In this document: positions 27,962 to 40,678 of the stretch, in pieces
How positions within the stretch are numbered: the stretch's first letter is position 1
Layout of the letters: each line of letters starts with the position of its first letter
Assembly: GCA_963796215.1 (NCBI GenBank)
Contig: CAWCKU010000012.1
Location: 35,049-99,048 of the forward strand
Source: an uncultured delta proteobacterium
GTDB taxonomy: Bacteria; Desulfobacterota; Desulfobaccia; Desulfobaccales; 0-14-0-80-60-11
Length of the DNA: 64,000 nt
Direction: 5' to 3'
Notes under the pieces: model-generated
Seen by the model: the letters and a program-made list of their open reading frames with translations, nothing else
Told to the model about the DNA's origin: nothing
The model's database searches: none
Program-made: the position numbers and the translations under genes

Positions 27962-28558
27962 TTAACGGCCGGGCCGGGAAACCGGAATCTCCCGGGGGGC
28001 CGAGGGGGTAAAAGGCGCCGTTTCCCCGGGTCCGCCGCCCTTGATACTCCGGGCTTCTTTCAGCAGTTTTCTTTGATACATGAGATAACGGGCCTGCTGG
28101 ACTGGGTTGAGCAAGGCATCCTCTTCCGCACCCTGCCGCGCCTGCAGCTCCTGCATCGCCTTTTGCTTCTGCTTGACGTTGGTCAAAATCGCCCTTATTT
28201 CCGGCTCCGACGGCGAGGGCTGCTCCATGAGCTGCTCCAGCCGCCGGTATTCGACCATGCTATCCCGGATCAATTGCTGCCTGACGGGCTTGTAGCGCTG
28301 CTCGATCTGCAGGAGCTGGTCCACGGTCTGTTGGTTCACTCCCAGGGCCGGCCCCATTTGGGTCCGTTTGATCTCCTGGAATTGAGCCTGGAAGCCCCCG
28401 CCCCTGCCGCTGCCGGGTTGGACCTGGGGTTGGACCTGGGGTCGGCCCATTGGTTGGCCCATGGGTGGTTGGCCCATGGGTTGGGCCAGGGCCCAGGTGG
28501 CCGAGGCCAGACCGGCCAGGATCAGGCCCAGGAAATGGCGGAGTACCTTGTTAGACAT
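27962..28558 (-). CDS. Periplasmic Spy/CpxP-like helical protein
   Basis: Signal peptide, Q/P/M/G-rich linker, helical hairpin ending LNPVQQARY (LTxxQ-like). Confidence 0.7.
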   Translation of the reverse strand: MSNKVLRHFLGLILAGLASATWALAQPMGQPPMGQPMGRPQVQPQVQPGSGRGGGFQAQFQEIKRTQMGPALGVNQQTVDQLLQIEQRYKPVRQQLIRDSMVEYRRLEQLMEQPSPSEPEIRAILTNVKQKQKAMQELQARQGAEEDALLNPVQQARYLMYQRKLLKEARSIKGGGPGETAPFTPSAPREIPVSRPGR

Positions 28559-29221
28559 GATCCATCCTTTTCATGCTGACTTAACTTTTTCAGAAAAGCT
28601 TCCCTTTCCTGCGGGGTCATCCCGGCCAGGGTCGAATCCAGGTCGTCCAGATCTTCTTCAGGGAACGCCTCGTCACCGCTGTTCCTGGCGACATTGACAA
28701 AATTTTGGGATTCCCCGAGGGCTTCGGCCGGGGCCTGGGGTGTGGCCGCCAGCTTCCGCGCCGGAGTGGCGCTTTCCTGTTTGGCTATTGCGGCCGGTGG
28801 CGCCGTAACGGCTGGGGCCGCGCTCTTGGCTACCTGCGGCGGCGGGGTCAGCCCGGGCCGCTCCGGGTTCAGGTAACCCACCGCCACCCAGAGGAGCAGC
28901 GCCGCCAGGGCCGGAGCCCCCACCAGGTAGGGAATCCGGCCCCACCAGACGGAACGGGCCGGGGCCATTTGCCCTGCCTGGTCGGCCCGCACCAGCTTCA
29001 GGTGCATTTCCCGGGAAAAGTCGGCCCAAAACTCCGGGCCGGGATCAGCCTTCGGGGCCGAGTGCGATGGCCTCCACCACTTCCCGCAGGGCCGCCTGCT
29101 CGGCACGGCAGGCGGGGCACCGGTCCAAATGGGCCTTGAGCCTTCCTTTCCAAAAGGCAGGCAGGTCACCCTCGGGGTACTCTGGTAGCCACCGCTGGAG
29201 AAGTGTGCATTGCCACTTCAT
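28522..29221 (-). CDS. Zinc-binding membrane anti-sigma factor, frameshift near 29065
   Basis: Manual N-terminus MKWQCTLLQRWLPEY...AHLDRCPAC (HxxxCxxC), then TM helix in ORF 28522-29169. Confidence 0.8.
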
Positions 29222-29774
29222 CTTCTTCCTCGCTCTTCATATTTTTCTTCAAGGTCTTCAAGGCCTGGCAGTAGTTCACCCGGGCCGCCCCCGGGGTCCC
29301 TCCCAGAACCTCGCTGATTTCCTGGTAAGAGAGGCCCTGTTCCACCTTCAGGGTGAGCACCGCCTGCTGTTTGGGGGGAAGCTTTTCCAGGGCGGCATAA
29401 ACCCGCCGGCGCTCATCCTGGGTTACCAATTCCTCTTCCGGGGAATCATCCTCCCCCACCAACACTACGTCATCACAATTCACCGGATCCCCAAACTTTT
29501 TCCGGTTTTTCAGAAAATTGTAGCATTGGTTAATGGCAATCCGGAACAGCCAGGTGCGGAACTGGGCATCTTGGCGAAAGCTCCGGATATGGATAAAGGC
29601 CTGCATGAAGGCCTGCTGCGCCAGATCCTTCGCCTCCTCCGGATCACTCACCATCCGGCACGCCAGCCCGTAAATCTCCCGCTGATACTTCTTCACCAAT
29701 TCTTCGAAGGCCGGGAGGTCGCCATTTTGAGCCTGGGCCACGAGCTGTGCGTCAGTCATGAGATCTCGTTTCAC
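29166..29774 (-). CDS. ECF sigma factor
   Basis: AFEELVKKYQ, EEAKDLAQQAF, FRTWLFRIAIN, region 4 GLSYQEI. Confidence 0.93.
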   Translation of the reverse strand: MKRDLMTDAQLVAQAQNGDLPAFEELVKKYQREIYGLACRMVSDPEEAKDLAQQAFMQAFIHIRSFRQDAQFRTWLFRIAINQCYNFLKNRKKFGDPVNCDDVVLVGEDDSPEEELVTQDERRRVYAALEKLPPKQQAVLTLKVEQGLSYQEISEVLGGTPGAARVNYCQALKTLKKNMKSEEEDEVAMHTSPAVATRVPRG

Positions 29775-29944
29775 CGGCTTTCATTAATTTAGACCCGATA
29801 GCCATGAAAATGTTAAATAGGGCTTTGCTAAATGGTCTGCAACCATTTCCAAATCCGGTTCTATTGGTAATATCGACCAGTCTTCATGACCCAAGGGCCA
29901 AAATGAAGCCTGAAAAGGTCTCACGCCAAGACGCGAAATCTTTT

Positions 29945-29972
29945 GTAGGGGCGGCTCGCGAGCCGCCCCTAC
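29945..29972. repeat. GTAG-family REP palindrome
   Basis: Perfect palindrome GTAGGGGCGGCTCGCGAGCCGCCCCTAC. Confidence 0.8.
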
Positions 29973-30051
29973 GTCGAACTTTCACATTAAGAGCTGACTG
30001 CTGACAGCTATTTATTATTATCCCTTATCCAACGGATCGGCTCAACCATAT

Positions 30052-31254
30052 TTATTCCGTCTCCCGCCCGGCTTGCTCCTGGCGCCGCTCCGACAGGCCA
30101 GTGGCGAACGGCAGGGCCAACACCGCGGTACCCAAGGCAGCCACCCCCGGCCAGCCGGCCAGGCTATAGGCATAGCCGCTCAGGGTGATGCCCGCCGCGC
30201 CCCCCAGGTAATAGGCCAGGACATAGAGGGAATTGGCCCGGCCCCGGCTGGAGGTGAGCTTGCGGTTCAAAGACCCGGCCGCCGCGGCGTGGATGGCGAA
30301 AAACCCGGCGCACACCAAGGCCAGGGCCGCCAGGATAGCCACCAGGGATTTGATCAGGGTCAGGGCCAGGGCCAGGGCAAAGACCAGAGAGCCCAAGACC
30401 ATGGTGCCGCCGTTGCCGATGCGATTGCTCAGGTTCCCGGCCACCGGACCGATAAAGACCCCGATGAGGTAGGAGAGATAAAGCAGGGTGATGAGCTGGG
30501 TGGAGGCGTGAAACGGCGCCCCGGAGAGATAGAACGGCAGGTAGTTGAACACCGACGAGAAGACGAAAAAGCCTCCAAAGGCCACCAGAAAGATGCGACG
30601 CAACTCCTGGTGGGAGAGCAGCGCCAGGAACCCTTCACCTTCGGTCTGGCCCTCCTCGGCCCGCCGGCCGGCCGGCAGCCGCCAGGCCGCCATGACGGTG
30701 GCCATGATCAGGAGAACGGCGGCGGTGATAAAGGCGTAACGCCAGTGCAGGGGCGGATGCAGCCAGCCGCCCAACAGGCGCCCCCCCAGGCCGCCGGCCA
30801 CGGTGGCGGAGACGTAAGAGCCCATGACCACGTTGAGCCGCTCGAGCGGCAGGTTGGCCGAGAGATAGGCCGCCAGGCAGGTGGTGAGGGCCGGCACGAA
30901 CAGCCCCTGGACAAAGCGGGCCGCCACCAGGAGGAGCAGGTTATTGGTGGCGGCGCAGCAGAGCCCCGCCGCGGCCACCACCGCGCCCCCCACCAGGATG
31001 AGGCGCCGCAATGGGAAACGGTCCGAAAGCCACCCGAAGGGGAGGTTGGCCAGCGAGATTCCCAGGATCACCGCCGACACGGTATAGGAGGCCTGGGAGG
31101 GGCTGACTCCGAATTCCTGCTGGATCACCGGCAAGACCGGCTGGGTGATATAGACGTTGCTGATGGCCGCGGCCACCAGCGCGAAGACCAGGGCCTGTAA
31201 ACCGAAAGTGCCGGGAATCTTCTTGCCGTTTTCTGTTTTGGGGGTATCGCTCAT
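30052..31254 (-). CDS. MFS transporter (YnfM/YbfB-like)
   Basis: Multi-TM; YITQPVLP, GWLSDRF, ARFVQG, FNYLPFYL, YYLGG. Confidence 0.9.
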   Translation of the reverse strand: MSDTPKTENGKKIPGTFGLQALVFALVAAAISNVYITQPVLPVIQQEFGVSPSQASYTVSAVILGISLANLPFGWLSDRFPLRRLILVGGAVVAAAGLCCAATNNLLLLVAARFVQGLFVPALTTCLAAYLSANLPLERLNVVMGSYVSATVAGGLGGRLLGGWLHPPLHWRYAFITAAVLLIMATVMAAWRLPAGRRAEEGQTEGEGFLALLSHQELRRIFLVAFGGFFVFSSVFNYLPFYLSGAPFHASTQLITLLYLSYLIGVFIGPVAGNLSNRIGNGGTMVLGSLVFALALALTLIKSLVAILAALALVCAGFFAIHAAAAGSLNRKLTSSRGRANSLYVLAYYLGGAAGITLSGYAYSLAGWPGVAALGTAVLALPFATGLSERRQEQAGRETE

Positions 31255-31448
31255 TGCTTGTTTTGGTAGCCGCAGGCTTTAGCCTGCGCCTGATAGGCAA
31301 GCCGCTAGACGTATGGGGGGGCCGTGCCCGCCGTAAATATGGCGGCCACAGGCCGCTCCATAACTCTTGAATAGGTGGGCGGGCCTCCGTGCCGGCCCAC
31401 CAGCGGATGGCCGGAAACGGCCATCCATCACCGGAACCGAAACCGGCT

Positions 31449-33608
31449 TCACTGGCTCACTAACTTTTGAATCACCTTAAAAACCTCCGGCGACACCGAG
31501 GTGAAGCGGATCTCGACCTCCGTGCGGCCCTCCGCCCCGGGGTTCACCGCCGTCACCTTGCCGTAGATCTTTCCCGGCACCTCCGTGCCGTCCTCCGCCA
31601 GCAGGTGGAGGCGCACGTCCTGCCAGGCCTCAGGCTCGCCCTGCAAGGCCATCCGGGCCCCGGTTTCTCCCAGCTCGCTGATTCGGGCCTCTTCGATGGT
31701 AATGGTGACGATTTTATCTTTCATCAAGTCCAGGCGCGCCGCCAGAGGTTGGGCTAGCCGCGTCAGGACGTAGCTCTTGGCCTTCAGGCTGATGTTATAG
31801 GGGTCGCCGATGCCCTGCACGATATAGAGGGTAACGGTGCCGCTGACTCCTTTCATCTGGGCCTGCACCTCCCCCTCGATCTGCACCAGATCCCGCACCC
31901 GTTCATAGGTGTCGGGGCTGATAAGCACCTGGCCGCCCATCGCGTAAGCCTCGATGCGGCTGGTGAAGTTGACATGGGCTCCCACCACGCTGTACTTGGT
32001 GCGGCGCTCGGAGCCGATGTTGCCCACCACCACCTCGCCGGTATTCACCGCGATGCCCATCTCCAGGTGCGGGAGATTGTCGGCCTCGTTTAAGGCATTG
32101 ATTTCGTCCATCGCCGCCTGCATTTGCAGGGCGCAGGCCACCGTCCGGGCCGGATGATCCGCCATCGGCGTCGGCGCCCCGAAAAAGGCCAGGATGCCGT
32201 CCCCCACGATTTCGTCGATGACCGCCTGGTTGTCGGTGAGGATCTCGATCATCTTGCCCAGGTAGCGGTTCAGAAAGGTCACCACCTGCTCCGGGTGCAT
32301 GTCCGCGGTGATCGCGGTGAAGCCCCGCAGGTCGCTCATGATGATGGAGACCTCCCGGAATTCGCCCCCCATCTCCAGGGCGTCTTTATCTTCCAGGAGC
32401 TTTTTTACCACTTCCTGGGTGACGTAGCGCCCGAAGGTGTCCCGGACGAAGTCCCGCTTGGCGATGTACTCCGCCAGGTGCTCGCCCATGTGGTTGAAGG
32501 AGCGGGCCAGATGGGCGATCTCCTTGGCGCCCGTTTCCGGTACCGTGGCGCTGAAATCGCCCTGAGCGATGTCCGCGGTTTTCCGGGCCAGGGCCCGCAG
32601 TGGTTTGGTGATCCTCCGGGAGATGCCGGTAATCGCCACGGCCAGGAAAACCAGGCCCAGGATGGCGATGGCCACGGTGCGCTGCACCAGGCGCTGGGCG
32701 TCGGCGAATAATTCGTCATCCGGGAAAACCACCCCCAGGGACCAGCCGGTGGCTGGCAGGGGGGCATAATAAAACCAGGACTTCTTGCCGGTGAGAGATG
32801 CGGGGATGGGCACAAAGCCCTCGCCGCCTCGGATCATATCCCGCCCCACCTCCCGCATCTCGGGAGATTTCCTGGCTTCCGCCAGGCTGAACATGCTCTC
32901 CCGCATGATCCAATCTTCCTTGGGATGGGTGACGAAGACGCCGTCCTGCGAAACGAGAAAGGCGAAGCCGCTCTCATAAATCTTCACCGCGGCGACGATA
33001 TCTGTCAGCCGCCTCAGCGAGAGGTCGGCCCCCACCACCCCGGCCAACTGCCGATGGCCTTCGGTTTCCCGGTAAAATGGCACCGAAAAGGTGGACATGA
33101 CAATGTTGCCGCCGCCTTCGTCAAAATAGGGCGCGCTCCATAGCGGCCGCCCCAATTCCCGGGGGACCTGGTACCAATCCAGGCCGAAGTACTGATAGGA
33201 GTCGCCGCCCAACCATTTAAGTTGCTGCTGATCGCCGTTGCGGAAACAGTAAGGCATGAAATATTTTGACTTGGGATTGCCGGCGTAGGGTTCGAAGGCG
33301 ACGCCCAGGCCGAACAGCTCTTTATTGTGCTCCATGCCCGTCTGAAGCAATTGCACCAAATCATCCCGCTCACAGGAGATATGTTCCAGGGTGTCTGCCA
33401 GGTTCAACGGAATCTTTTCCACCCCCCGCAGGATCACCTCTATCCGGTAAACCGTCTCCCGGGTCAGGTGCATGGCGGTCTCCTGAGCCCGCCGGATGAT
33501 GCCCTCCTTGGAGGCATAATAATTATAGGCTGACGCCGCTAAAAAAATGGCCGCGGCGCCGCTCAGCACAAAGAAGATGAGTTGGGTGGCCAGGCTCTTA
33601 TTTCTCAT
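31449..33608 (-). CDS. Class III nucleotide cyclase (dCache-HAMP-cyclase-PilZ-like tail), Cya2-like, probable guanylyl cyclase
   Basis: dCache DWY..P....WSAPYFDEGGG; SDLRGFT, DEIVGDG, GNIGSERRTKYSVVGAHVNFTSRIE. Confidence 0.88.
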   Translation of the reverse strand: MRNKSLATQLIFFVLSGAAAIFLAASAYNYYASKEGIIRRAQETAMHLTRETVYRIEVILRGVEKIPLNLADTLEHISCERDDLVQLLQTGMEHNKELFGLGVAFEPYAGNPKSKYFMPYCFRNGDQQQLKWLGGDSYQYFGLDWYQVPRELGRPLWSAPYFDEGGGNIVMSTFSVPFYRETEGHRQLAGVVGADLSLRRLTDIVAAVKIYESGFAFLVSQDGVFVTHPKEDWIMRESMFSLAEARKSPEMREVGRDMIRGGEGFVPIPASLTGKKSWFYYAPLPATGWSLGVVFPDDELFADAQRLVQRTVAIAILGLVFLAVAITGISRRITKPLRALARKTADIAQGDFSATVPETGAKEIAHLARSFNHMGEHLAEYIAKRDFVRDTFGRYVTQEVVKKLLEDKDALEMGGEFREVSIIMSDLRGFTAITADMHPEQVVTFLNRYLGKMIEILTDNQAVIDEIVGDGILAFFGAPTPMADHPARTVACALQMQAAMDEINALNEADNLPHLEMGIAVNTGEVVVGNIGSERRTKYSVVGAHVNFTSRIEAYAMGGQVLISPDTYERVRDLVQIEGEVQAQMKGVSGTVTLYIVQGIGDPYNISLKAKSYVLTRLAQPLAARLDLMKDKIVTITIEEARISELGETGARMALQGEPEAWQDVRLHLLAEDGTEVPGKIYGKVTAVNPGAEGRTEVEIRFTSVSPEVFKVIQKLVSQ

Positions 33609-34608
33609 CAGGGGTATCGCAATCGCAATAAAACTTGGAAAAATCGGGAATCTCTCTGATGGTCCCGTCATCCTTCAGACCTTTCGCGGCCCGATAATAA
33701 TCATCCGGGTCCAGGCCGCCTATGGGCCCCCGGGGTCCGGCGGCCAGGATCATGGTCCGCAGGCGCTCCAGCATCCATTGCTGGTGGACCCGGTTGGTGG
33801 GCACATGAGCCGCGTCCACGTATTTCATGACGATGTCCAAAGCTTCCTCGGGGTGGGCCAGGGCATATTCCCAGCCGGCGATGGAACCCTGAACAAATTG
33901 GCGGCACACTTGCGGCTTTTCCTTAAAGGTCCGCTCCAGGCAGTAAATGCCGTCTTCAGGGACATTGAGGCCATGCGCGGCCAGGAAAAAGGCGGTCAAA
34001 TCCTCAGGATTCAGGCCGGCGTTAAGGAGCAGGTGATATTCGTTGTACCACATGGCCGAAGCTACATCCACGCCGCCCCGCAAGAAGAGATTCAGGGTCG
34101 CCCCCTGTGGCACGGTCTGCACCTTAAGACCATACTTGCGGAAAAAGGCATGGACCTGACCTTGGAAATCCTCACCCCAGAGGCCCACCTTTTTGCCATT
34201 GATATCTTCTGGTTCAATGATGCCGCTGGACTTTTTGGCGATCAGCATCAGGGCCGAATGCTGCGCCAACTGGCAAATATTCACCAGTTTAAGGCCCCGG
34301 GCTCGCCGGACAATGCCGGCGGTGAGCTGCATGGTGCCGAAATCGGCCCGTCCCTGGGCCAGCATCTCCGAAGGGGGCCATTCCGGTCCGCCCCGCAGGA
34401 TCCTGACGTCCAGGCCCCGCTCCCGGTAGAAGCCTTTTTCGTAGGCCACGTAGAAGCCGGCGAACTGGGCCTGGGGCTGCCATTGGGGGATGAAGGAGAC
34501 GGTGGCCGACTCGGCGATGCCGACGGCGGCAAAGCACAGGAGAAACCAGATAAAAATCAGGCGGCAAGGCCTTCTGAGGGCTGAATATTGCAGGGGACCA
34601 GGCTCCAT
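33598..34608 (-). CDS. NMT1/THI5-like periplasmic binding protein overlapping the cyclase start
   Basis: Signal peptide; QWQPQAQFAGFYVAYEKGFY, AMWYNE. Confidence 0.9.
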   Translation of the reverse strand: MEPGPLQYSALRRPCRLIFIWFLLCFAAVGIAESATVSFIPQWQPQAQFAGFYVAYEKGFYRERGLDVRILRGGPEWPPSEMLAQGRADFGTMQLTAGIVRRARGLKLVNICQLAQHSALMLIAKKSSGIIEPEDINGKKVGLWGEDFQGQVHAFFRKYGLKVQTVPQGATLNLFLRGGVDVASAMWYNEYHLLLNAGLNPEDLTAFFLAAHGLNVPEDGIYCLERTFKEKPQVCRQFVQGSIAGWEYALAHPEEALDIVMKYVDAAHVPTNRVHQQWMLERLRTMILAAGPRGPIGGLDPDDYYRAAKGLKDDGTIREIPDFSKFYCDCDTPDEK

Positions 34609-34886
34609 GGGGTTATTGCATCTTATCGGTTTCCTCCCGGGGTTTCAATAGGATAAAACCTAACTCCCGAGCCTGGGGAGGCCGGGGAGAAAGACGCCGG
34701 CCCGGCCCCGCACCTCGGGCAAGTCCTCTGCCCCCCTCTCTTCGGCCAGCCCTGAAAAAAAAGGGTGTTATCGCTGCCCGGTTATCACTAAGCGGACGGA
34801 ATAACACCCTTTGGTCAATTGTCACGACTTACTTTAAATTACCTGGTCCATTCCTGCGGATTCCCGCGAGCTTGCCCCCACGGAAA

Positions 34887-35840
34887 CTAACGTTTTTCCT
34901 CACCGGGACCGCCCTTTTCAGGTTGAGTCGCGCCAGGGGCAGCCTTAGGTGCAGGGGCCGGGGCCGGTGCAGCTTTGGGAGCCGGTGCCGGGCCCGGCTT
35001 CGGTGCCGCCGGGGGGGCCACCTGGGCCGGACCAGGTCTCGGTCCCGCCGGTGGAGCTACATGAGCGGGTCCTGGCTTCGGTTCCGCCGGCGGAGCCACT
35101 TGGGCCGGACCTGGTCTCGGTCCCGCCGGGGGAGCCACATGAGCGGGTCCTGGCTTCGGTTCCGCCGGGGGGGCTACATGAGCGGGTCCTGGTCTCGGTT
35201 CCGCCGGGGGGGCCACATGAGCGGGTCCTGGTCTCGGTCCCGCCGGGGGGGCTACATGAGTCGGACCTGTTGGTCCTGGTCCTGCAGGCGGGGTCACCTG
35301 ACCAGGGCCTGGTCTCTGTCCCGGGGTCGGGGTCACTTGACCCGGGCCTGGGCCTGGTCGCTGTCCGCCTGTAGCGGTTGGAGCACTGGGGTGGCCACGG
35401 AATCCTTTTTGCCACTCTCCAGCCTGCCCATGTTGGTGTTGTTCAAAAAATTTCTCGTCATAGCGGCGACCTTGCCGGTGTTGGCGCCAATAGGGATACT
35501 CTTGCTGAAAATGCTGATAGTAATCAGGATGTCCTTTGTACCACGTCAGCCACCGCGGCGCATACCAGGTACCGGGTCTCACGATATAAGTGGGAGCATA
35601 AGAGTAATACGGGGCCCAGCCGTATTGGGGGCCGAAAAAGTAATACAGGATGCCATTCAAAAACCAATCGCCGTTGTAATAGACCCACGGCGTATCAGGC
35701 CCCACCCAGGGTGATGCATAGGGATCAGAGGGCGGGGGTGGATAATTATAGCCCTGAGCATAAGAAGGCGCCGACATGGCGGTGACCGCGCCTCCAGCCA
35801 GCAGAATTGCCAGCATCAAAATAAAAGCTACCTTTTTCAT
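34887..35840 (-). CDS. Secreted protein with aromatic-rich N-domain and Pro-rich 14-aa repeats
   Basis: Signal MKKVAFILMLAILL; PWVYYNGDWF...GWAPYY; repeats PGPAHVAPPA(G/E)P(R/K). Confidence 0.8.
   Translation of the reverse strand: MKKVAFILMLAILLAGGAVTAMSAPSYAQGYNYPPPPSDPYASPWVGPDTPWVYYNGDWFLNGILYYFFGPQYGWAPYYSYAPTYIVRPGTWYAPRWLTWYKGHPDYYQHFQQEYPYWRQHRQGRRYDEKFFEQHQHGQAGEWQKGFRGHPSAPTATGGQRPGPGPGQVTPTPGQRPGPGQVTPPAGPGPTGPTHVAPPAGPRPGPAHVAPPAEPRPGPAHVAPPAEPKPGPAHVAPPAGPRPGPAQVAPPAEPKPGPAHVAPPAGPRPGPAQVAPPAAPKPGPAPAPKAAPAPAPAPKAAPGATQPEKGGPGEEKR
34990..35350 (-). repeat. Intragenic 42-bp tandem repeat (about 8 diverged units)
   Basis: Recurrent ACATGAGCGGGTCCTGG(C/T)(T/C)TCGGT units spaced 42 nt apart. 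Confidence 0.85.
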
Positions 35841-36151
35841 AAGTTTCCTCCCAGTGGATTTTTGCCGGAACATTTGCTTTAAAATAAGTCTGCCAATCAA
35901 CGATGCAAGAATCCGAATCTAGAAAAGATCAGCGACTTAGGAAGAAATCAGGCCTTGGGGTCTTGCCCTACCGATTTCCGGGTTAGCGGAGGCGGCAGCG
36001 CTAGACAGCCAAAAGAGCTTAAACCGCTGGTGCAGAGAGGGTCCGGGGGGGGGTGAAATTTAGGGTTAGTCCTTCAGGAGATCTCCATCCCGCCAACCCC
36101 ATTATCTCAGGGGAGGGGGTTGTTAAGGCAACGCCCTGGCGAAACCCCACT

Positions 36152-38125
36152 TCAGGCCGCGGCCTTCAGCCTCTGGCGAATAATCTGGTAGACCTCCGGC
36201 GCCACCGACGTGAAACGGATGGTTGCGGTGAGGCGGCCATCCGCCCCGGTCTGCACCTGGGTCACCTTGCCGTAGATTTTTCCGGGAATGGCCGCGCCCT
36301 GGTCGTCCAGCATCTGCAGGCGCACATCCTCCCATTCCACCAATTCGCCCTCAAAGGCCAACCGGGCTGCGGTCTCGCTGAGATGGGTGGCCCACACCGC
36401 CTCGTTGCTGCCGATGACCACCTTTTCCCGGATGCGGTGCAGATGGAATTTAAGGGGCGCCGGCAGTTGAACCAGGGCCTCCTGCCGGGCCTTAAGCTGA
36501 ATGTTGTAAGGGCCGCCGATGGACCGCACCTCATACAGGGTGGCCTTGCCGGGGATGCCTTTCATCTCCGCAGTCAGAACCTCTCCTATTTCCACCAGGC
36601 CCTTCACCCGCTCATAGGTATCAGCGCTGATGAGCACCTGCCCCCCCAGGGCAAAGGATTCGATCCGGCTGGTAAAATTGACGTGAGCCCCCACCACGCT
36701 GTATTTGGCCCGGCGCTCCGAGCCGATATTACCCACCACCACCGCGCCGGTGTTCACCGCGACCCCCATCTCCAGGTAGGGCAGGCCGTCAGCTTCGTTT
36801 AGAAAATTAATCTCATCCATGGCCGCCTGCATGGCCATGGCGCAAGCCACCGCTCGCACCGGGTGGTCCTCCAGGGGCTCCGGGGCCCCGAAAAAGGCCA
36901 GGATGCCGTCGCCCAGGATCTCGTCGATGACGGCCCGGTAATCCAGGAGAATCTCAATCATCTTCTCCAGATAGCGGTTGAGAAAGGCGATAATATCCTG
37001 CGGCTCCAGGTCGGCGGTCAGGGCGGTAAAGCCCCGCAGATCGCAGATGAGCAAGGACACTTCCCGGGTCTCGCCTCCCATCTCCAGGGCATCTTTGTCT
37101 TCCAGGAGTCTTTTCACCACTTCCTGGGTGACATAGCGCCCGAAGGTATCCCGGATGAAATCCCGTTTTTCGATGTAGTCGGTAAGTTGCTCGCCTAGAT
37201 TATTGAAGGATCGGGCCAGGGCCGCCACCTCCCTGACGCCTTGCTCAGGCACCGCCACCGCGAAATCCCCTTCCCCCACCTGATGCACCGCCGCCTCCAG
37301 ACGGCGCAGCGGCCGGGAAATGGCCCCGGCGAACCACAGGCCTCCCAGGACGGCCAGCAGAGCCAGGACCAGCCCCGCGATCAGACTACCGATCCTGACT
37401 TGCCGATCGATGGCTTTCTCATGTTCCGCCAGGCGCTCCCTGGTCCTGGCCAGGATTTCCTCGCTGGCCCTCTTGATCTCGTCCCCGGTGGGCTTAAAGA
37501 ATTCATCAATATTTACTATGGCCGCGACAATAAACGGCGTCCCGGGAAGGCGCACCCGGGCTGAATACCTTTGCCGCTCTCGCTTTTGGTGGTCAAAAAA
37601 GGTGAAGTATCCCGAGACCTGGTTTTCGGTAAACGACCTTTTCACCAGCTCGGTGGTTTCCGGGTATTCCTCCTGCCAATCCAACTGGTTGCGGCCTTCC
37701 ACCTTGGGGTCGGGATGAAAGAGGATATAACCATGCTGGTCATACAGATCGGTATAGCCGGCTTCCTTCCCAAAGGCATAGATCTTCTGAATAGCCAGTT
37801 TTCTGAGGTTGGGGTTATGACGAATTTGGGCGTAGTCATAACTCTTCTTGCCTTTGAAATAATGCGCCAGTTCCCTGGCAACGTCTTCAGCTTTATCCTG
37901 GACAATATATTCGCCCACCGCGGTGAGAATCTTTTTTGACACCTGGATATTGGCAGCCGTGGCGGTTTGCATGGCCTGGCCCGAGGTCTTCAGGGATCGG
38001 GCCAGCAGGACGTCGGTAGCATAGTCTTCGACGACCGCCATCCCCGCGATAAGCAGCAGAATCAGCGCCAGATAGGAAAACAGCAGATAGGTGCGGATGC
38101 TAAGAGAGCGCAGTGGCATGGCCAT
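36152..38125 (-). CDS. Second Cya2-like class III cyclase (Cache-like sensor, HAMP, cyclase, PilZ-like tail)
   Basis: CDLRGFT, DEILGDG, GNIGSERRAKYSVVGAHVNFTSRIE; cytoplasmic half closely paralogous to 31449-33608. Confidence 0.88.
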   Translation of the reverse strand: MAMPLRSLSIRTYLLFSYLALILLLIAGMAVVEDYATDVLLARSLKTSGQAMQTATAANIQVSKKILTAVGEYIVQDKAEDVARELAHYFKGKKSYDYAQIRHNPNLRKLAIQKIYAFGKEAGYTDLYDQHGYILFHPDPKVEGRNQLDWQEEYPETTELVKRSFTENQVSGYFTFFDHQKRERQRYSARVRLPGTPFIVAAIVNIDEFFKPTGDEIKRASEEILARTRERLAEHEKAIDRQVRIGSLIAGLVLALLAVLGGLWFAGAISRPLRRLEAAVHQVGEGDFAVAVPEQGVREVAALARSFNNLGEQLTDYIEKRDFIRDTFGRYVTQEVVKRLLEDKDALEMGGETREVSLLICDLRGFTALTADLEPQDIIAFLNRYLEKMIEILLDYRAVIDEILGDGILAFFGAPEPLEDHPVRAVACAMAMQAAMDEINFLNEADGLPYLEMGVAVNTGAVVVGNIGSERRAKYSVVGAHVNFTSRIESFALGGQVLISADTYERVKGLVEIGEVLTAEMKGIPGKATLYEVRSIGGPYNIQLKARQEALVQLPAPLKFHLHRIREKVVIGSNEAVWATHLSETAARLAFEGELVEWEDVRLQMLDDQGAAIPGKIYGKVTQVQTGADGRLTATIRFTSVAPEVYQIIRQRLKAAA

Positions 38126-38276
38126 CTCCAAAAATCCCCGGGTTGCTGACCCAGCCCCAGGCGGCAGGACCGGCCCCAGCCATATATTTTGTTCGGATTA
38201 TATAACCTTTCGGCAACTACGGTGAGAAAATGAAGGCTGGCGGAAAAGCTGAGGTGCCGCGGCATTTAACCAACTC

Positions 38277-39591
38277 TCAAGGATAAATCCGGTCAATCAG
38301 CCGCGGGAAGGGGATAGTCTCCCGCACGTGGTGCAGGCCGCAGAGCCAGGCCACCACCCGTTCGATGCCCAGGCCGAAGCCGCCATGGGGCACGCTGCCA
38401 TAACGGCGCAGATCCAGGTACCACTCCAGGGGCTCCCGGGGCAGGTTATGGGCCGCCAGGCTCTTAAGCAGGGTCTCCAGGTCATCCATGCGCTGGGAGC
38501 CGCCGACGATCTCGCCATAGCCTTCCGGGGCCAACAGGTCGACGCACAGGGCCAGGCGCGGGTCGGCCGGGTCCGGCTCCATGTAAAAGGCCTTGGCGGA
38601 CCTAGGGTAGCGGTGCACCAGCACCGGCCGCTTAAACATCTGGGACAGCACGGTCTCTTCATCCCCGCCCAGGTCTTCCCCCCAGGGGATCTCCTTGCCC
38701 TGCTCCTTGAGGCGCTCCAGGGCCTCGCCATAGCTCAGGCGGGGAAAAGGCCCGGCCACCACCTGCTCCAACGGTCCCAGGTCCCGCTCCAAGAGGCGCA
38801 ACTGCGGCTCCTGGTGCTCCAGCACCCGTGCCACCACGTGGCGCACCAGGTCTTCCGCCAGCGCCATGACATCTTCCAGGGTAAAGAAGGCGGCCTCGGC
38901 CTCCACCATCCAAAACTCCGTCAGGTGGCGCCGGGTCTTGGATTTTTCGGCCCGGAAGGTGGGCCCGAAACAATAGACCCGGCCCAGGGCCATGGCCGCG
39001 GCCTCCAGGTAGAGCTGGCCGCTTTGCGACAGGTAGGCCTTGCCCTGGTCCAGGTAGTTGGTCTCGAACAGACTGGTGGTGCCTTCGCACGACGTCGGCG
39101 TCAGGATGGGGGTGTCCACCAGGACGAAGCCCCGCTCCTGAAAAAAATCGCGGCAGGCCCGGCAAACCTCGTCCCGGACCCGCAGGATGGCCTGCTGGCG
39201 GGGCGACCTGAGCCAGAGATGGCGCCGGTCCAGCAGGAAGGCCACCCCGTGCTCCTTGGGAGAGATGGGAAATTCTTGGGAGATGTTGCACCGGGCGCAA
39301 CCGGGAGACCTCCAACTCATAGCCTCCGGGGGCCCTGGGTTCGGCCTTCACTTTACCCTCCAGGATCAGGGAGGACTCCAGGGTGAGGCGGTCGAACTGC
39401 TGAAAGTCTTCCTCCGGCAGGTTGCCCTTGACCAGGACCCCTTGGGCCAGGCCGGTGCCGTCCCGCACCACCAGGAAACGCACCTTGCCGCTGGAGCGCA
39501 GATGGTAGACCCAGCCGCGCAGGGTGACGGTCTGCCCCACGTGGGTCTGCAAGTCGGCGATAGCGGTTACCGGCGGTGATTCAGTATTCAT
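38277..39591 (-). CDS. asnS: Asparagine--tRNA ligase, frameshift near 39290
   Basis: OB fold LRGWV..LRSSGK.RF.VVRDGTG; [22 protein letters not shown]; GFGLGIER. Confidence 0.93.
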
Positions 39592-39709
39592 TGAGAGGAT
39601 CACTAATCCGTATGGGTGGCTCGCAGCCGCCCCTACAGCTGATATTTTCTGAGGCCGTTCTTCGATTTCTCTCTTTTTGGCTCACCGCCGGAAACCAACT
39701 GCTCACGGC

Positions 39710-40678
39710 TTACTGGGCCACTCCTGACAACATAATCTTGATATGGGCCTTTTCCCTGAGGGTCTTGACCCACTCGGAGAAGCGCTTTTCCATCTCCTTC
39801 TGCTGTAGGATGCGGCGAATCTCCGGGGCAGCCTCTTCAAAGGACCGGGCCTGTCCAGAACGGCGTTCCACCAACTGGATCAACTGAATCCCCTCCGGAG
39901 TCAAGGCCGGGGCCACCTCTTTGGGCTTCAACCGCCCTAAAAATTCCGCCAGCTTGGGGTCCAGGTCGGTTTGGTTGACAAAACCGACATCGGTCTCTTC
40001 CAAGGAGAATTTCTTGGCCAGCGTCCTGGAAAGAAACGCCGTTTTTGACTTCCGCCAGAACCGCTTCGGCCTTCTTCTTGAGTTCCTCCTTTTGGGCATC
40101 CGTGGTGCCCGGAGGAAAAGGAATCCTGATGGCGCGCAGATGCATCTGGGCGCCGCCACTTCCCTTATAATGCTCCTCGTAAATCCGGCGGACCTCGGCT
40201 TCGCTGACCATGGACTTGGCCCCCACCGCGATGGTGACCAGGCGCTCCTGGATCATCTGGTCGGTGAGGTTTTGTTTGAATTCCTTCAAGGTGAGGCCGG
40301 CCTTGCTCAGGGCATTTTTAAGGGCCTCGTCGTCCGGCAGATTGTTGCGCTTTTTGAAAGTTTCCAGGGCGGCCGCCATTTCTTTGTCCTCGATGGTCAT
40401 CCCCCGGCGTTTGGCCTCAGCTTTGGCCAGTTTCCGGTCGATCAAGGACTCCAGCATCTGGCGTTCGACTTCTTTTTCTTCTTTGCCCTTGGGTTTGATG
40501 CCCGCCTGGGCCTCCATGGATTTGGAGGCCGCCTGCAGCTCCGACATGGTGATGATTTCATCGTTGACCTCAGCCACGATGCGGTCCACCACTTCGGCGG
40601 CGCTCACTTTGACCATGAGCACTGCAGCAGGCAGGTCAATGCCACCGTCAGCAGCCCTCTAAAAATTATCTTCATCAT
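39710..40678 (-). CDS. SurA-family peptidyl-prolyl isomerase/chaperone, frameshifted
   Basis: EVVDRIVAEVNDEIITMSEL (SurA N), parvulin-like remnant, LREKAHIKI; next to mfd. Confidence 0.85.

Follow-up and report, generated by a model that had tools for sequence, protein, structure and literature searches.

Biochemically proven bacterial guanylyl cyclases (GCs) are few, and cyclic GMP (cGMP) is rarely documented as a bacterial signal. Whether an anaerobe makes this nucleotide is the question raised by two genes, here named Cyc1 and Cyc2, in a stretch of 64,000 nucleotides (the window) from an uncultured delta proteobacterium of the Desulfobaccales (assembly GCA_963796215.1, contig CAWCKU010000012.1, positions 35,049 to 99,048); unless a contig is named, coordinates are those of the window. 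Cyc1 (31449..33671, minus strand; open reading frame, ORF, of 740 amino acids) is composed of a transmembrane helix, a double Cache (dCache) domain, a second transmembrane helix, a HAMP domain, a cyclase transducer element (CTE), a class III cyclase domain and a tail with a PilZ fold. Cyc2 (36152..38131, minus strand; ORF of 659 amino acids) has the same order of parts, with a single Cache domain as sensor. Residues are numbered according to these long ORFs; the likely start of Cyc1 is the ATG at 33608, because the homologue P0001 has 719 amino acids, and that of Cyc2 is the ATG at 38119, which gives a called protein of 655 amino acids. As judged from the alignments presented below, both enzymes are probably GCs, a Glu/Ser variant of the type represented by Cya2 of Synechocystis sp. 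PCC 6803, and most likely convert GTP to cGMP. A first-pass annotation of the window, made from the DNA letters alone, had recognized the two cyclases and missed the C-terminal PilZ-fold domain and a coupled binding-protein gene. The present analysis adds both, the tail being a hallmark of the Glu-type enzymes, and shows how far the clade extends within the bacterial class.

Catalytic Domains of Cyc1 and Cyc2

The CTE and catalytic domain of Cyc1 (residues 409-632, with FGRY at 413; 31776..32447, minus strand) and those of Cyc2 (36485..37168, minus strand) scored 92 and 83 bits, respectively, against PF00211, both above its curated cut-off of 21.9 bits. The two sequences were 74% identical over 235 amino acids, confirming that the paralogs combine similar cytoplasmic halves with different sensors (dCache versus single Cache), as the first-pass annotation had stated. 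A phmmer search of the Protein Data Bank (PDB) with Cyc1 revealed Cya2 (2w01_A) as the closest solved relative (E 4.4e-61, 210 bits, 199 gap-free columns), with 103 of the 199 alignment columns identical when counted by hand from the printed alignment. The next solved family, CyaB of Pseudomonas aeruginosa (3r5g), reached 101 bits, so that the likeness to Cya2 proposed in the first-pass annotation is well founded. Besides the gap-free core with its catalytic residues in register, Cya2 shares the FGRY element ahead of the core and a C-terminal extension of about 110-120 residues after it, and differs in its CHASE2 sensor, which stands in place of the Cache and HAMP domains of Cyc1 and Cyc2, and in the partner binding protein of Cyc1.

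The motifs DEIVGDG and DEILGDG, and the stretch GNIGSERR(T/A)KYSVVGAHVNFTSRIE common to both proteins, were present letter for letter as first reported. The Glu of these motifs aligned, without gaps, with that of DEFMGDG in Cya2 (Glu488), four residues ahead of the second metal Asp, while the same position holds Lys in 6fht, an engineered adenylyl cyclase (AC) variant of Cya2. The claim of Glu at the purine-specifying position of both enzymes was thereby verified; the codons are GAA at 32211..32213 for Glu487 of Cyc1 and GAG at 36920..36922 for Glu404 of Cyc2 (both minus strand). Excerpts of PMC6005667 give the active-site residues of Cya2 as D448, R450, E488, D492, G562, N569, R573 and K608. 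The equivalents in Cyc1, at a constant offset of one, are D447, R449, E487, D491, S561, N568, R572 and K607, and those in Cyc2 are D364, R366, E404, D408, S478, N485, R489 and K524. The two proteins therefore retain both metal-binding Asp, the Asn and Arg of the transition state, and the Arg and Lys that bind phosphate.

Eukaryotic GCs (soluble, receptor and RhGC) have in common with Cyc1 and Cyc2 the class III fold and Glu with a small residue (Glu-Cys/Ser), but are far more distant (E 1e-9 to 1e-11), carry other regulatory domains and are without the PilZ-fold tail. Class IIIb ACs, such as CyaB and four Lys/Thr cyclases of the same genome (32-39% identical to Cyc1), share the fold, the catalytic residues and in some cases HAMP or dCache inputs, whereas they have the Lys/Thr pair and no tail. 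The Lys plus Asp/Thr pair of ACs (class IIIa/IIIb) was not found in Cyc1 or Cyc2, where the pair is Glu/Ser.

Conservation of the Glu/Ser Pair and Other Cyclases of the Genome

Glu and Ser occupied the two specificity positions in all 120 best database homologues, most of them from sources labelled Desulfobaccales or Deltaproteobacteria, with Ser, Ala or Gly at the position of Cya2 Tyr572. Related loci gave 85 cyclase-domain matches, including a same-architecture subset of 44 readable domains (L016-L047, L057, L062). In this subset the second position was Ser in 32 and Gly, as in Cya2, in 12, the Gly forms belonging to more distant Desulfomonilaceae, Syntrophales and Desulfotignum records.

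The source genome, whose assembly is 84.6% complete, contains eleven class III domains: three with Glu/Ser, one soluble with Glu/Gly, one with Asp/Gly, four with Lys/Thr, one with Asn/Thr and one degenerate. The Glu-type cyclases number four, namely Cyc1, Cyc2, a frameshifted copy on contig 23 and the soluble Glu/Gly enzyme. The occurrence of Glu-type and Lys/Thr enzymes in one genome indicates that two specificity classes are maintained in parallel, and the Glu/Ser pair is not attributable to chance drift, because all 120 homologues keep it while the genome retains its four Lys/Thr cyclases. The first-pass annotation had envisaged two inputs feeding a cGMP pathway in an anaerobe. The anaerobe stands, since dsrA is encoded in the genome and scores above its curated cut-off, in keeping with anaerobic reduction of sulfite or sulfate; the two-cyclase system does not, given four Glu-type cyclases.

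Some of these other cyclases deserve a short description. The third Glu/Ser enzyme (L006, contig 23, 1123-3088) has a core 78% identical to that of Cyc1 and a single-Cache sensor like that of Cyc2; a frameshift close to where the sensor ends divides it into two ORFs. The soluble Glu/Gly cyclase (L004, contig 20) has 482 amino acids, carries the PilZ-fold tail as well and lacks a membrane sensor; tail-bearing open frames of about 480-483 amino acids recur in many genomes of the class. A stand-alone cyclase domain of 217 amino acids (L005, contig 5) has an Asp/Gly pair and no tail. Outside the class, gammaproteobacterial records of Halieaceae type (L049-L061) contain Glu-type cyclases (DEF[LIV]GDA) that are 45-55% identical to the Cyc1 core and stop directly after the catalytic domain, without the tail.

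A PilZ-Fold Tail in Glu-Type Cyclases

The cyclase domain of Cyc1 is followed by residues 637-740 (31452..31763, minus strand) and that of Cyc2 by a tail (36155..36475, minus strand) which is 48% identical to that of Cyc1. A tail of ~105 residues ending in R-F-T-S-V was common to all four Glu-type cyclases of the genome, and its other cyclases were without it. An alignment of 36 tails (A1), that of Cyc2 included, was the basis of an AlphaFold (AF2) model and of a profile search. The model, with a predicted local distance difference test (pLDDT) of 89.6 and a predicted template modelling score (pTM) of 0.80, had PilZ domains as its best Foldseek matches, namely those of BcsA, a P. aeruginosa PilZ protein, Alg44, VCA0042, MapZ, MotI and YcgR, at E values between 7e-5 and about 1e-3. 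Comparison with 48,161 chains by VIA-align placed 13 PilZ chains first (Z 9.1-11.9), with unrelated flavin-reductase barrels at Z of 7.1 or less, and the first match in the ESM Atlas was a PilZ cluster (0.85), which is taken as a lead only. The tail thus shares the six-stranded barrel and C-terminal helix of the PilZ domains of BcsA, Alg44, YcgR, PlzD/VCA0042, MapZ and MotI.

The PilZ relationship was fainter in sequence. Pfam PilZ (PF07238) detected 11 of the 36 tails at E <= 1 (best 7e-6), scores being mostly under the cut-off; the Cyc1 tail, with 21.6 bits, fell below the cut-off of 22.5 bits. The A1 profile matched no PilZ chain among the PDB sequences, where the best E was 0.38, for unrelated proteins. 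PilZ domains bind cyclic di-GMP (c-di-GMP) through the motifs RxxxR and (D/N)xSxxG. Neither is kept in the consensus of the 36 tails, in a register set by eye and not by structural alignment: the consensus reads R/x-x-x-x-K, with an invariant Lys ahead of strand 1 at the place expected for the second Arg, and T-H-L-[S/C/G]-[E/D]-T-A-A in place of DxSxxG.

The profile was also searched against 1.84 billion representatives, where 960 proteins matched it at E <= 1e-3, 241 of them at E <= 1e-10. Among the best 150 matches, 42 had at least 300 residues; 41 of these were scanned and 40 had the tail directly after PF00211. The inputs of these tail-bearing cyclases were diverse (HAMP, dCache, REC, PAS, GAF, a kinase-AAA-GAF array and CHASE2). 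In the 40 aligned representatives the first specificity residue was never Lys; 37 had Glu and 3 had Asp. At the second position, 26 had Gly, 8 Ser, 5 Ala and 1 Asp. Within the class, the tail was present in 72 of 81 genomes, usually in 1-4 copies, and in 50 of the 58 genomes of high quality. Across the Glu-type cyclase clade as a whole, this PilZ-fold tail stands out as a hallmark.

Literature searches returned no paper linking PilZ with Cya2-type cyclases or cyclase architectures, and none on class III GCs in Deltaproteobacteria that makes these links. Signatures of bacterial GCs with relevance to the Ser and Tyr positions may, however, have been defined earlier (Ryu 2015) and may overlap with the findings made here.

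The tail may also connect these enzymes with Cya2 itself. The extension of Cya2 (residues 639-756) is described in excerpts of PMC5995499 as structurally uncharacterised, and light-regulated fusions are stated there to be nearly inactive without it. One tail-bearing cyclase, P0236, combines CHASE2 with the complete Glu/Gly/Tyr triad of Cya2, scoring 217 bits against 2w01 and matching the tail profile with E 3.9e-13. By analogy with this relative, the Cya2 extension may be the same PilZ-fold domain; that the comparison runs through P0236 counts against the assignment. In Cyc1 and Cyc2 the tail would probably support activity or regulate it, a role reported for the extension of Cya2. A more far-reaching proposal, which is regarded as rather unlikely, makes the tail an allosteric module that is restricted to Glu-type cyclases and senses nucleotides, either c-di-GMP, through a site other than the canonical one, or cGMP, the product. 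Signalling by c-di-GMP would then be wired to that by cGMP in a large unrecognised clade, and the proposal, if true, would explain why Cya2 needs its C-terminus for activity.

Substrate of Cyc1 and Cyc2

The assignment of Cyc1 and Cyc2 as GCs draws on the Glu. In excerpts of PMC5995499, the exchange E488K alone turns Cya2 from a GC into an AC, and because a single substitution swaps the two activities, Glu is considered the main determinant in the Cya2 scaffold. The pairs listed for GCs include Glu-Cys/Ser (excerpts of PMC6005667), and the residues given for their second position are C, S, T, H, A or G (excerpts of PMC4215837), so that Glu/Ser is a recognised GC pair.

Several observations weigh against GTP as the preferred substrate. 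The Gly of the Cya2-type Glu-Gly pair is replaced by Ser561 in Cyc1 (31989..31991, minus strand) and Ser478 in Cyc2 (36698..36700, minus strand), and Tyr572 of Cya2 is replaced by Ser571 in Cyc1 (31959..31961, minus strand) and Ser488 in Cyc2; Tyr was found in only one of the 40 tail-bearing representatives, the others having Ser, Ala, Gly or Phe. The Glu-Gly pair has been called unusual. In excerpts of PMC6005667 Gly562 is proposed to act sterically with Tyr572, and according to those of PMC4215837 Tyr572 boosts GC and not AC activity. In addition, Cya2 is reported to bind ATP about as well as GTP and to discriminate between them by turnover rather than affinity (PMC4284465, in part). With Tyr replaced in Cyc1, Cyc2 and 39 of the 40 representatives, the GC:AC ratio could therefore be far below that of Cya2.

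The search for cyclic nucleoside monophosphate (cNMP)-binding effectors suggested in the first-pass annotation likewise gave no support to a cGMP pathway: four cNMP-binding-domain loci were found in the genome, no cGMP-selective receptor was among them, and none had a cGMP signature. They encode a CRP/FNR-type regulator (on C17) that lacks the Arg of the cassette, a cNMP-rhodanese-membrane protein, a truncated fragment and a stand-alone domain of 169 residues. The second of these (L013, contig 15) is a 504-amino-acid frame with a cNMP-binding domain, a stretch that resembles rhodanese and several membrane passes at the C-terminus, the last two judged by eye. The gene for the stand-alone domain overlaps with its start, by 4 bases, the stop of a K+ channel gene (Ion_trans_2 and TrkA_N/RCK; L014, contig 21, 236-1908). 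This pair was kept in 12 of 12 related loci, the domain was present in 19 of 21 genomes, and the two proteins may form a two-gene cyclic-nucleotide-gated channel, a putative downstream receptor. The phosphate-binding cassette of the domain is R-S-A, as in CRP, in 11 of the 12 related loci, and R-T-A, as in cGMP-dependent kinases, only in the source genome. R-T-A was rejected as a cGMP signature because of the R-S-A cassettes in those 11 loci.

These points leave some room, at a clearly lower likelihood, for Cyc1 and Cyc2 to be adenylyl or dual cAMP/cGMP cyclases in which Glu is tolerated and mainly cAMP is formed, since the Gly and Tyr partners that the Glu has in Cya2 are replaced. The R-S-A cassettes of the genome's cNMP-binding proteins, like that of CRP, would suit such enzymes. 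Substitutions of substrate residues in other cyclases are also reported often to cut activity instead of converting specificity (excerpts of PMC4215837). However, Lys did not occur at the position in any of the 120 homologues or the 40 tail-bearing representatives, four Lys/Thr enzymes are kept alongside in the same genome, and Glu versus Lys alone decides between GC and AC in the Cya2 scaffold. That the two proteins produce another cyclic nucleotide (cIMP, cCMP or cUMP), or are silent sensors acting through the PilZ-fold tail, is very improbable, for although Glu/Ser/Ser is as yet only a putative specificity set and the tail has a protein or nucleotide interaction fold, all metal, transition-state and phosphate-binding residues are intact and conserved, which argues for an active purine cyclase, the sequences have no similarity to the contexts of defence-type pyrimidine cyclases, and the flanks are housekeeping or transport genes.

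GTP as the main substrate of Cyc1 and Cyc2 remains the reading preferred here. Bacterial class III cyclases reported to make cGMP belong to the XC_0250/XC_0249 pathway of Xanthomonas and the Gcy/CgrA pathway of Rhodospirillum centenum (excerpts of PMC3770947). In those systems a cNMP-domain effector gene adjoins the cyclase, whereas no cNMP-binding gene adjoined Cyc1, Cyc2 or the cyclases of the related loci.

Sensors and a Binding Protein Coupled to Cyc1

The periplasmic part of Cyc1 (residues 52-330; 32682..33518, minus strand) is a dCache domain matching PF22673 with 89.5 bits and PF02743 with 69.9 bits, and PDB dCache structures 3li8/3lib. The corresponding part of Cyc2 (residues 36-245; 37397..38026, minus strand) had no match in Pfam. 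Its AF2 model (pLDDT 87.3) showed a long N-terminal helix and one PAS-like alpha/beta module between the two transmembrane helices, and the best structural matches by Foldseek were single-Cache chemoreceptor domains (TlpB 3ub9, 5g4y, 4k08, 2qhk). Each sensor leads to a HAMP domain, matching PF00672 with 56 bits in Cyc1 (residues 350-400; 32472..32624, minus strand) and 51.8 bits in Cyc2 (37181..37336, minus strand).

Directly upstream of Cyc1, a gene (33598..34608, minus strand) encodes a secreted solute-binding protein of the NMT1/THI5 type (PF09084, 142.5 bits; cut-off 20.5), proposed as a co-sensor of Cyc1. It has a signal peptide, and its stop overlaps the start of Cyc1, indicating translational coupling. 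No genes for an ABC permease or ATPase were found near it; its flanks are Cyc1, the gene of a major facilitator superfamily (MFS) transporter and that of a Pro-rich protein, and the layout was the same in related loci. A Cyc1-type sensor was present in 21 loci, one of them cut at the gene, and in 17 of the 20 assessable ones the binding-protein gene lay directly upstream of the Cyc1-type gene; it was missing in the other three (L039, L044, L045). The pair extends to records labelled Syntrophales, Desulfotignum and Desulfomonilaceae.

Structure prediction supports docking of the binding protein on the dCache domain of Cyc1. The mature protein and the dCache domain were predicted as a complex in three runs with an interaction prediction score from aligned errors (ipSAE) of 0.88, while the best of three controls had 0.00. 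The runs agreed in 100% of contacts, the partner had a pLDDT of 91, and the predicted interface, which takes in residues 270-275 of the binding protein and 256-262 of Cyc1, contains residues that are invariant in the alignments of both binding proteins and dCache domains. Among 157 solved complexes 116 attain the same mark, and among 215 mismatched pairs 2 do so, a calibration that applies here only approximately because the alignments were self-made and unpaired, which counts against the prediction. A comparable arrangement is that of LuxP and LuxQ, in which a periplasmic solute-binding protein docks on the tandem PDC/Cache-type sensor of a membrane signalling enzyme. LuxQ has a kinase as output and Cyc1 a cyclase, and the partner of Cyc1 belongs to the NMT1/THI5 family, with binding that is predicted only.

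Genes Surrounding the Cyclases

On the minus strand, the order in the direction of transcription is asparaginyl-tRNA synthetase, Cyc2, the Pro-rich protein, the NMT1-type binding protein, Cyc1, the MFS transporter and an extracytoplasmic function (ECF) sigma factor. Between the two cyclase units, the gene at 34887..35900 (minus strand) encodes a secreted Pro-rich repeat protein, and six related loci (L016-L019, L022, L024) have it in the same position. It has an N-terminal part rich in Tyr, Trp and Pro, followed by tandem Pro-rich repeats like PAGPRPGPAHVAPPAEPKPG, and had no match in Pfam or NCBIfam. Downstream of Cyc1 (28522-31254, minus strand) are the genes for the MFS transporter, the ECF sigma factor and a probable anti-sigma protein, and the order of transporter and sigma genes is retained in several related loci (L018, L019, L020, L022, L025, L026). 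The asparaginyl-tRNA synthetase gene (38277-39603, minus strand) consists of two overlapping ORFs, 38659-39603 and 38277-39320, and its change of frame near 39300 is accordingly ascribed to a frameshift or an assembly error. A scan for promoters and terminators from 29000 to 40000 gave counts not above those of shuffled sequences (5 versus 3.1 and 15 versus 12.1, respectively), and thus no evidence of an operon.

Proposed Mechanism and Significance

Each cyclase would act as a membrane dimer, whose periplasmic Cache domain, double in Cyc1 and single in Cyc2, would signal through the HAMP domain and the FGRY transducer element to a homodimeric class III catalytic domain, where Glu487 or Glu404 would read the guanine base. 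Cyc1 would not be the sole sensor of its signal, as the secreted orphan NMT1-type protein would dock on the dCache domain and bring the ligand signal. Such a binding-protein-dependent Cache cyclase would represent a sensing arrangement known mainly from kinases.

The Glu/Ser/Ser triad of Cyc1 and Cyc2 offers a comparison with the Glu/Gly/Tyr triad of Cya2, and a PilZ fold is now assigned to the C-terminal module that accompanies Glu-type cyclases across many architectures. If cGMP is indeed the product of these enzymes, cGMP signalling would be a regular feature of a whole class of anaerobic sulfite/sulfate reducers, most of whose searched genomes carry one to four such cyclases.

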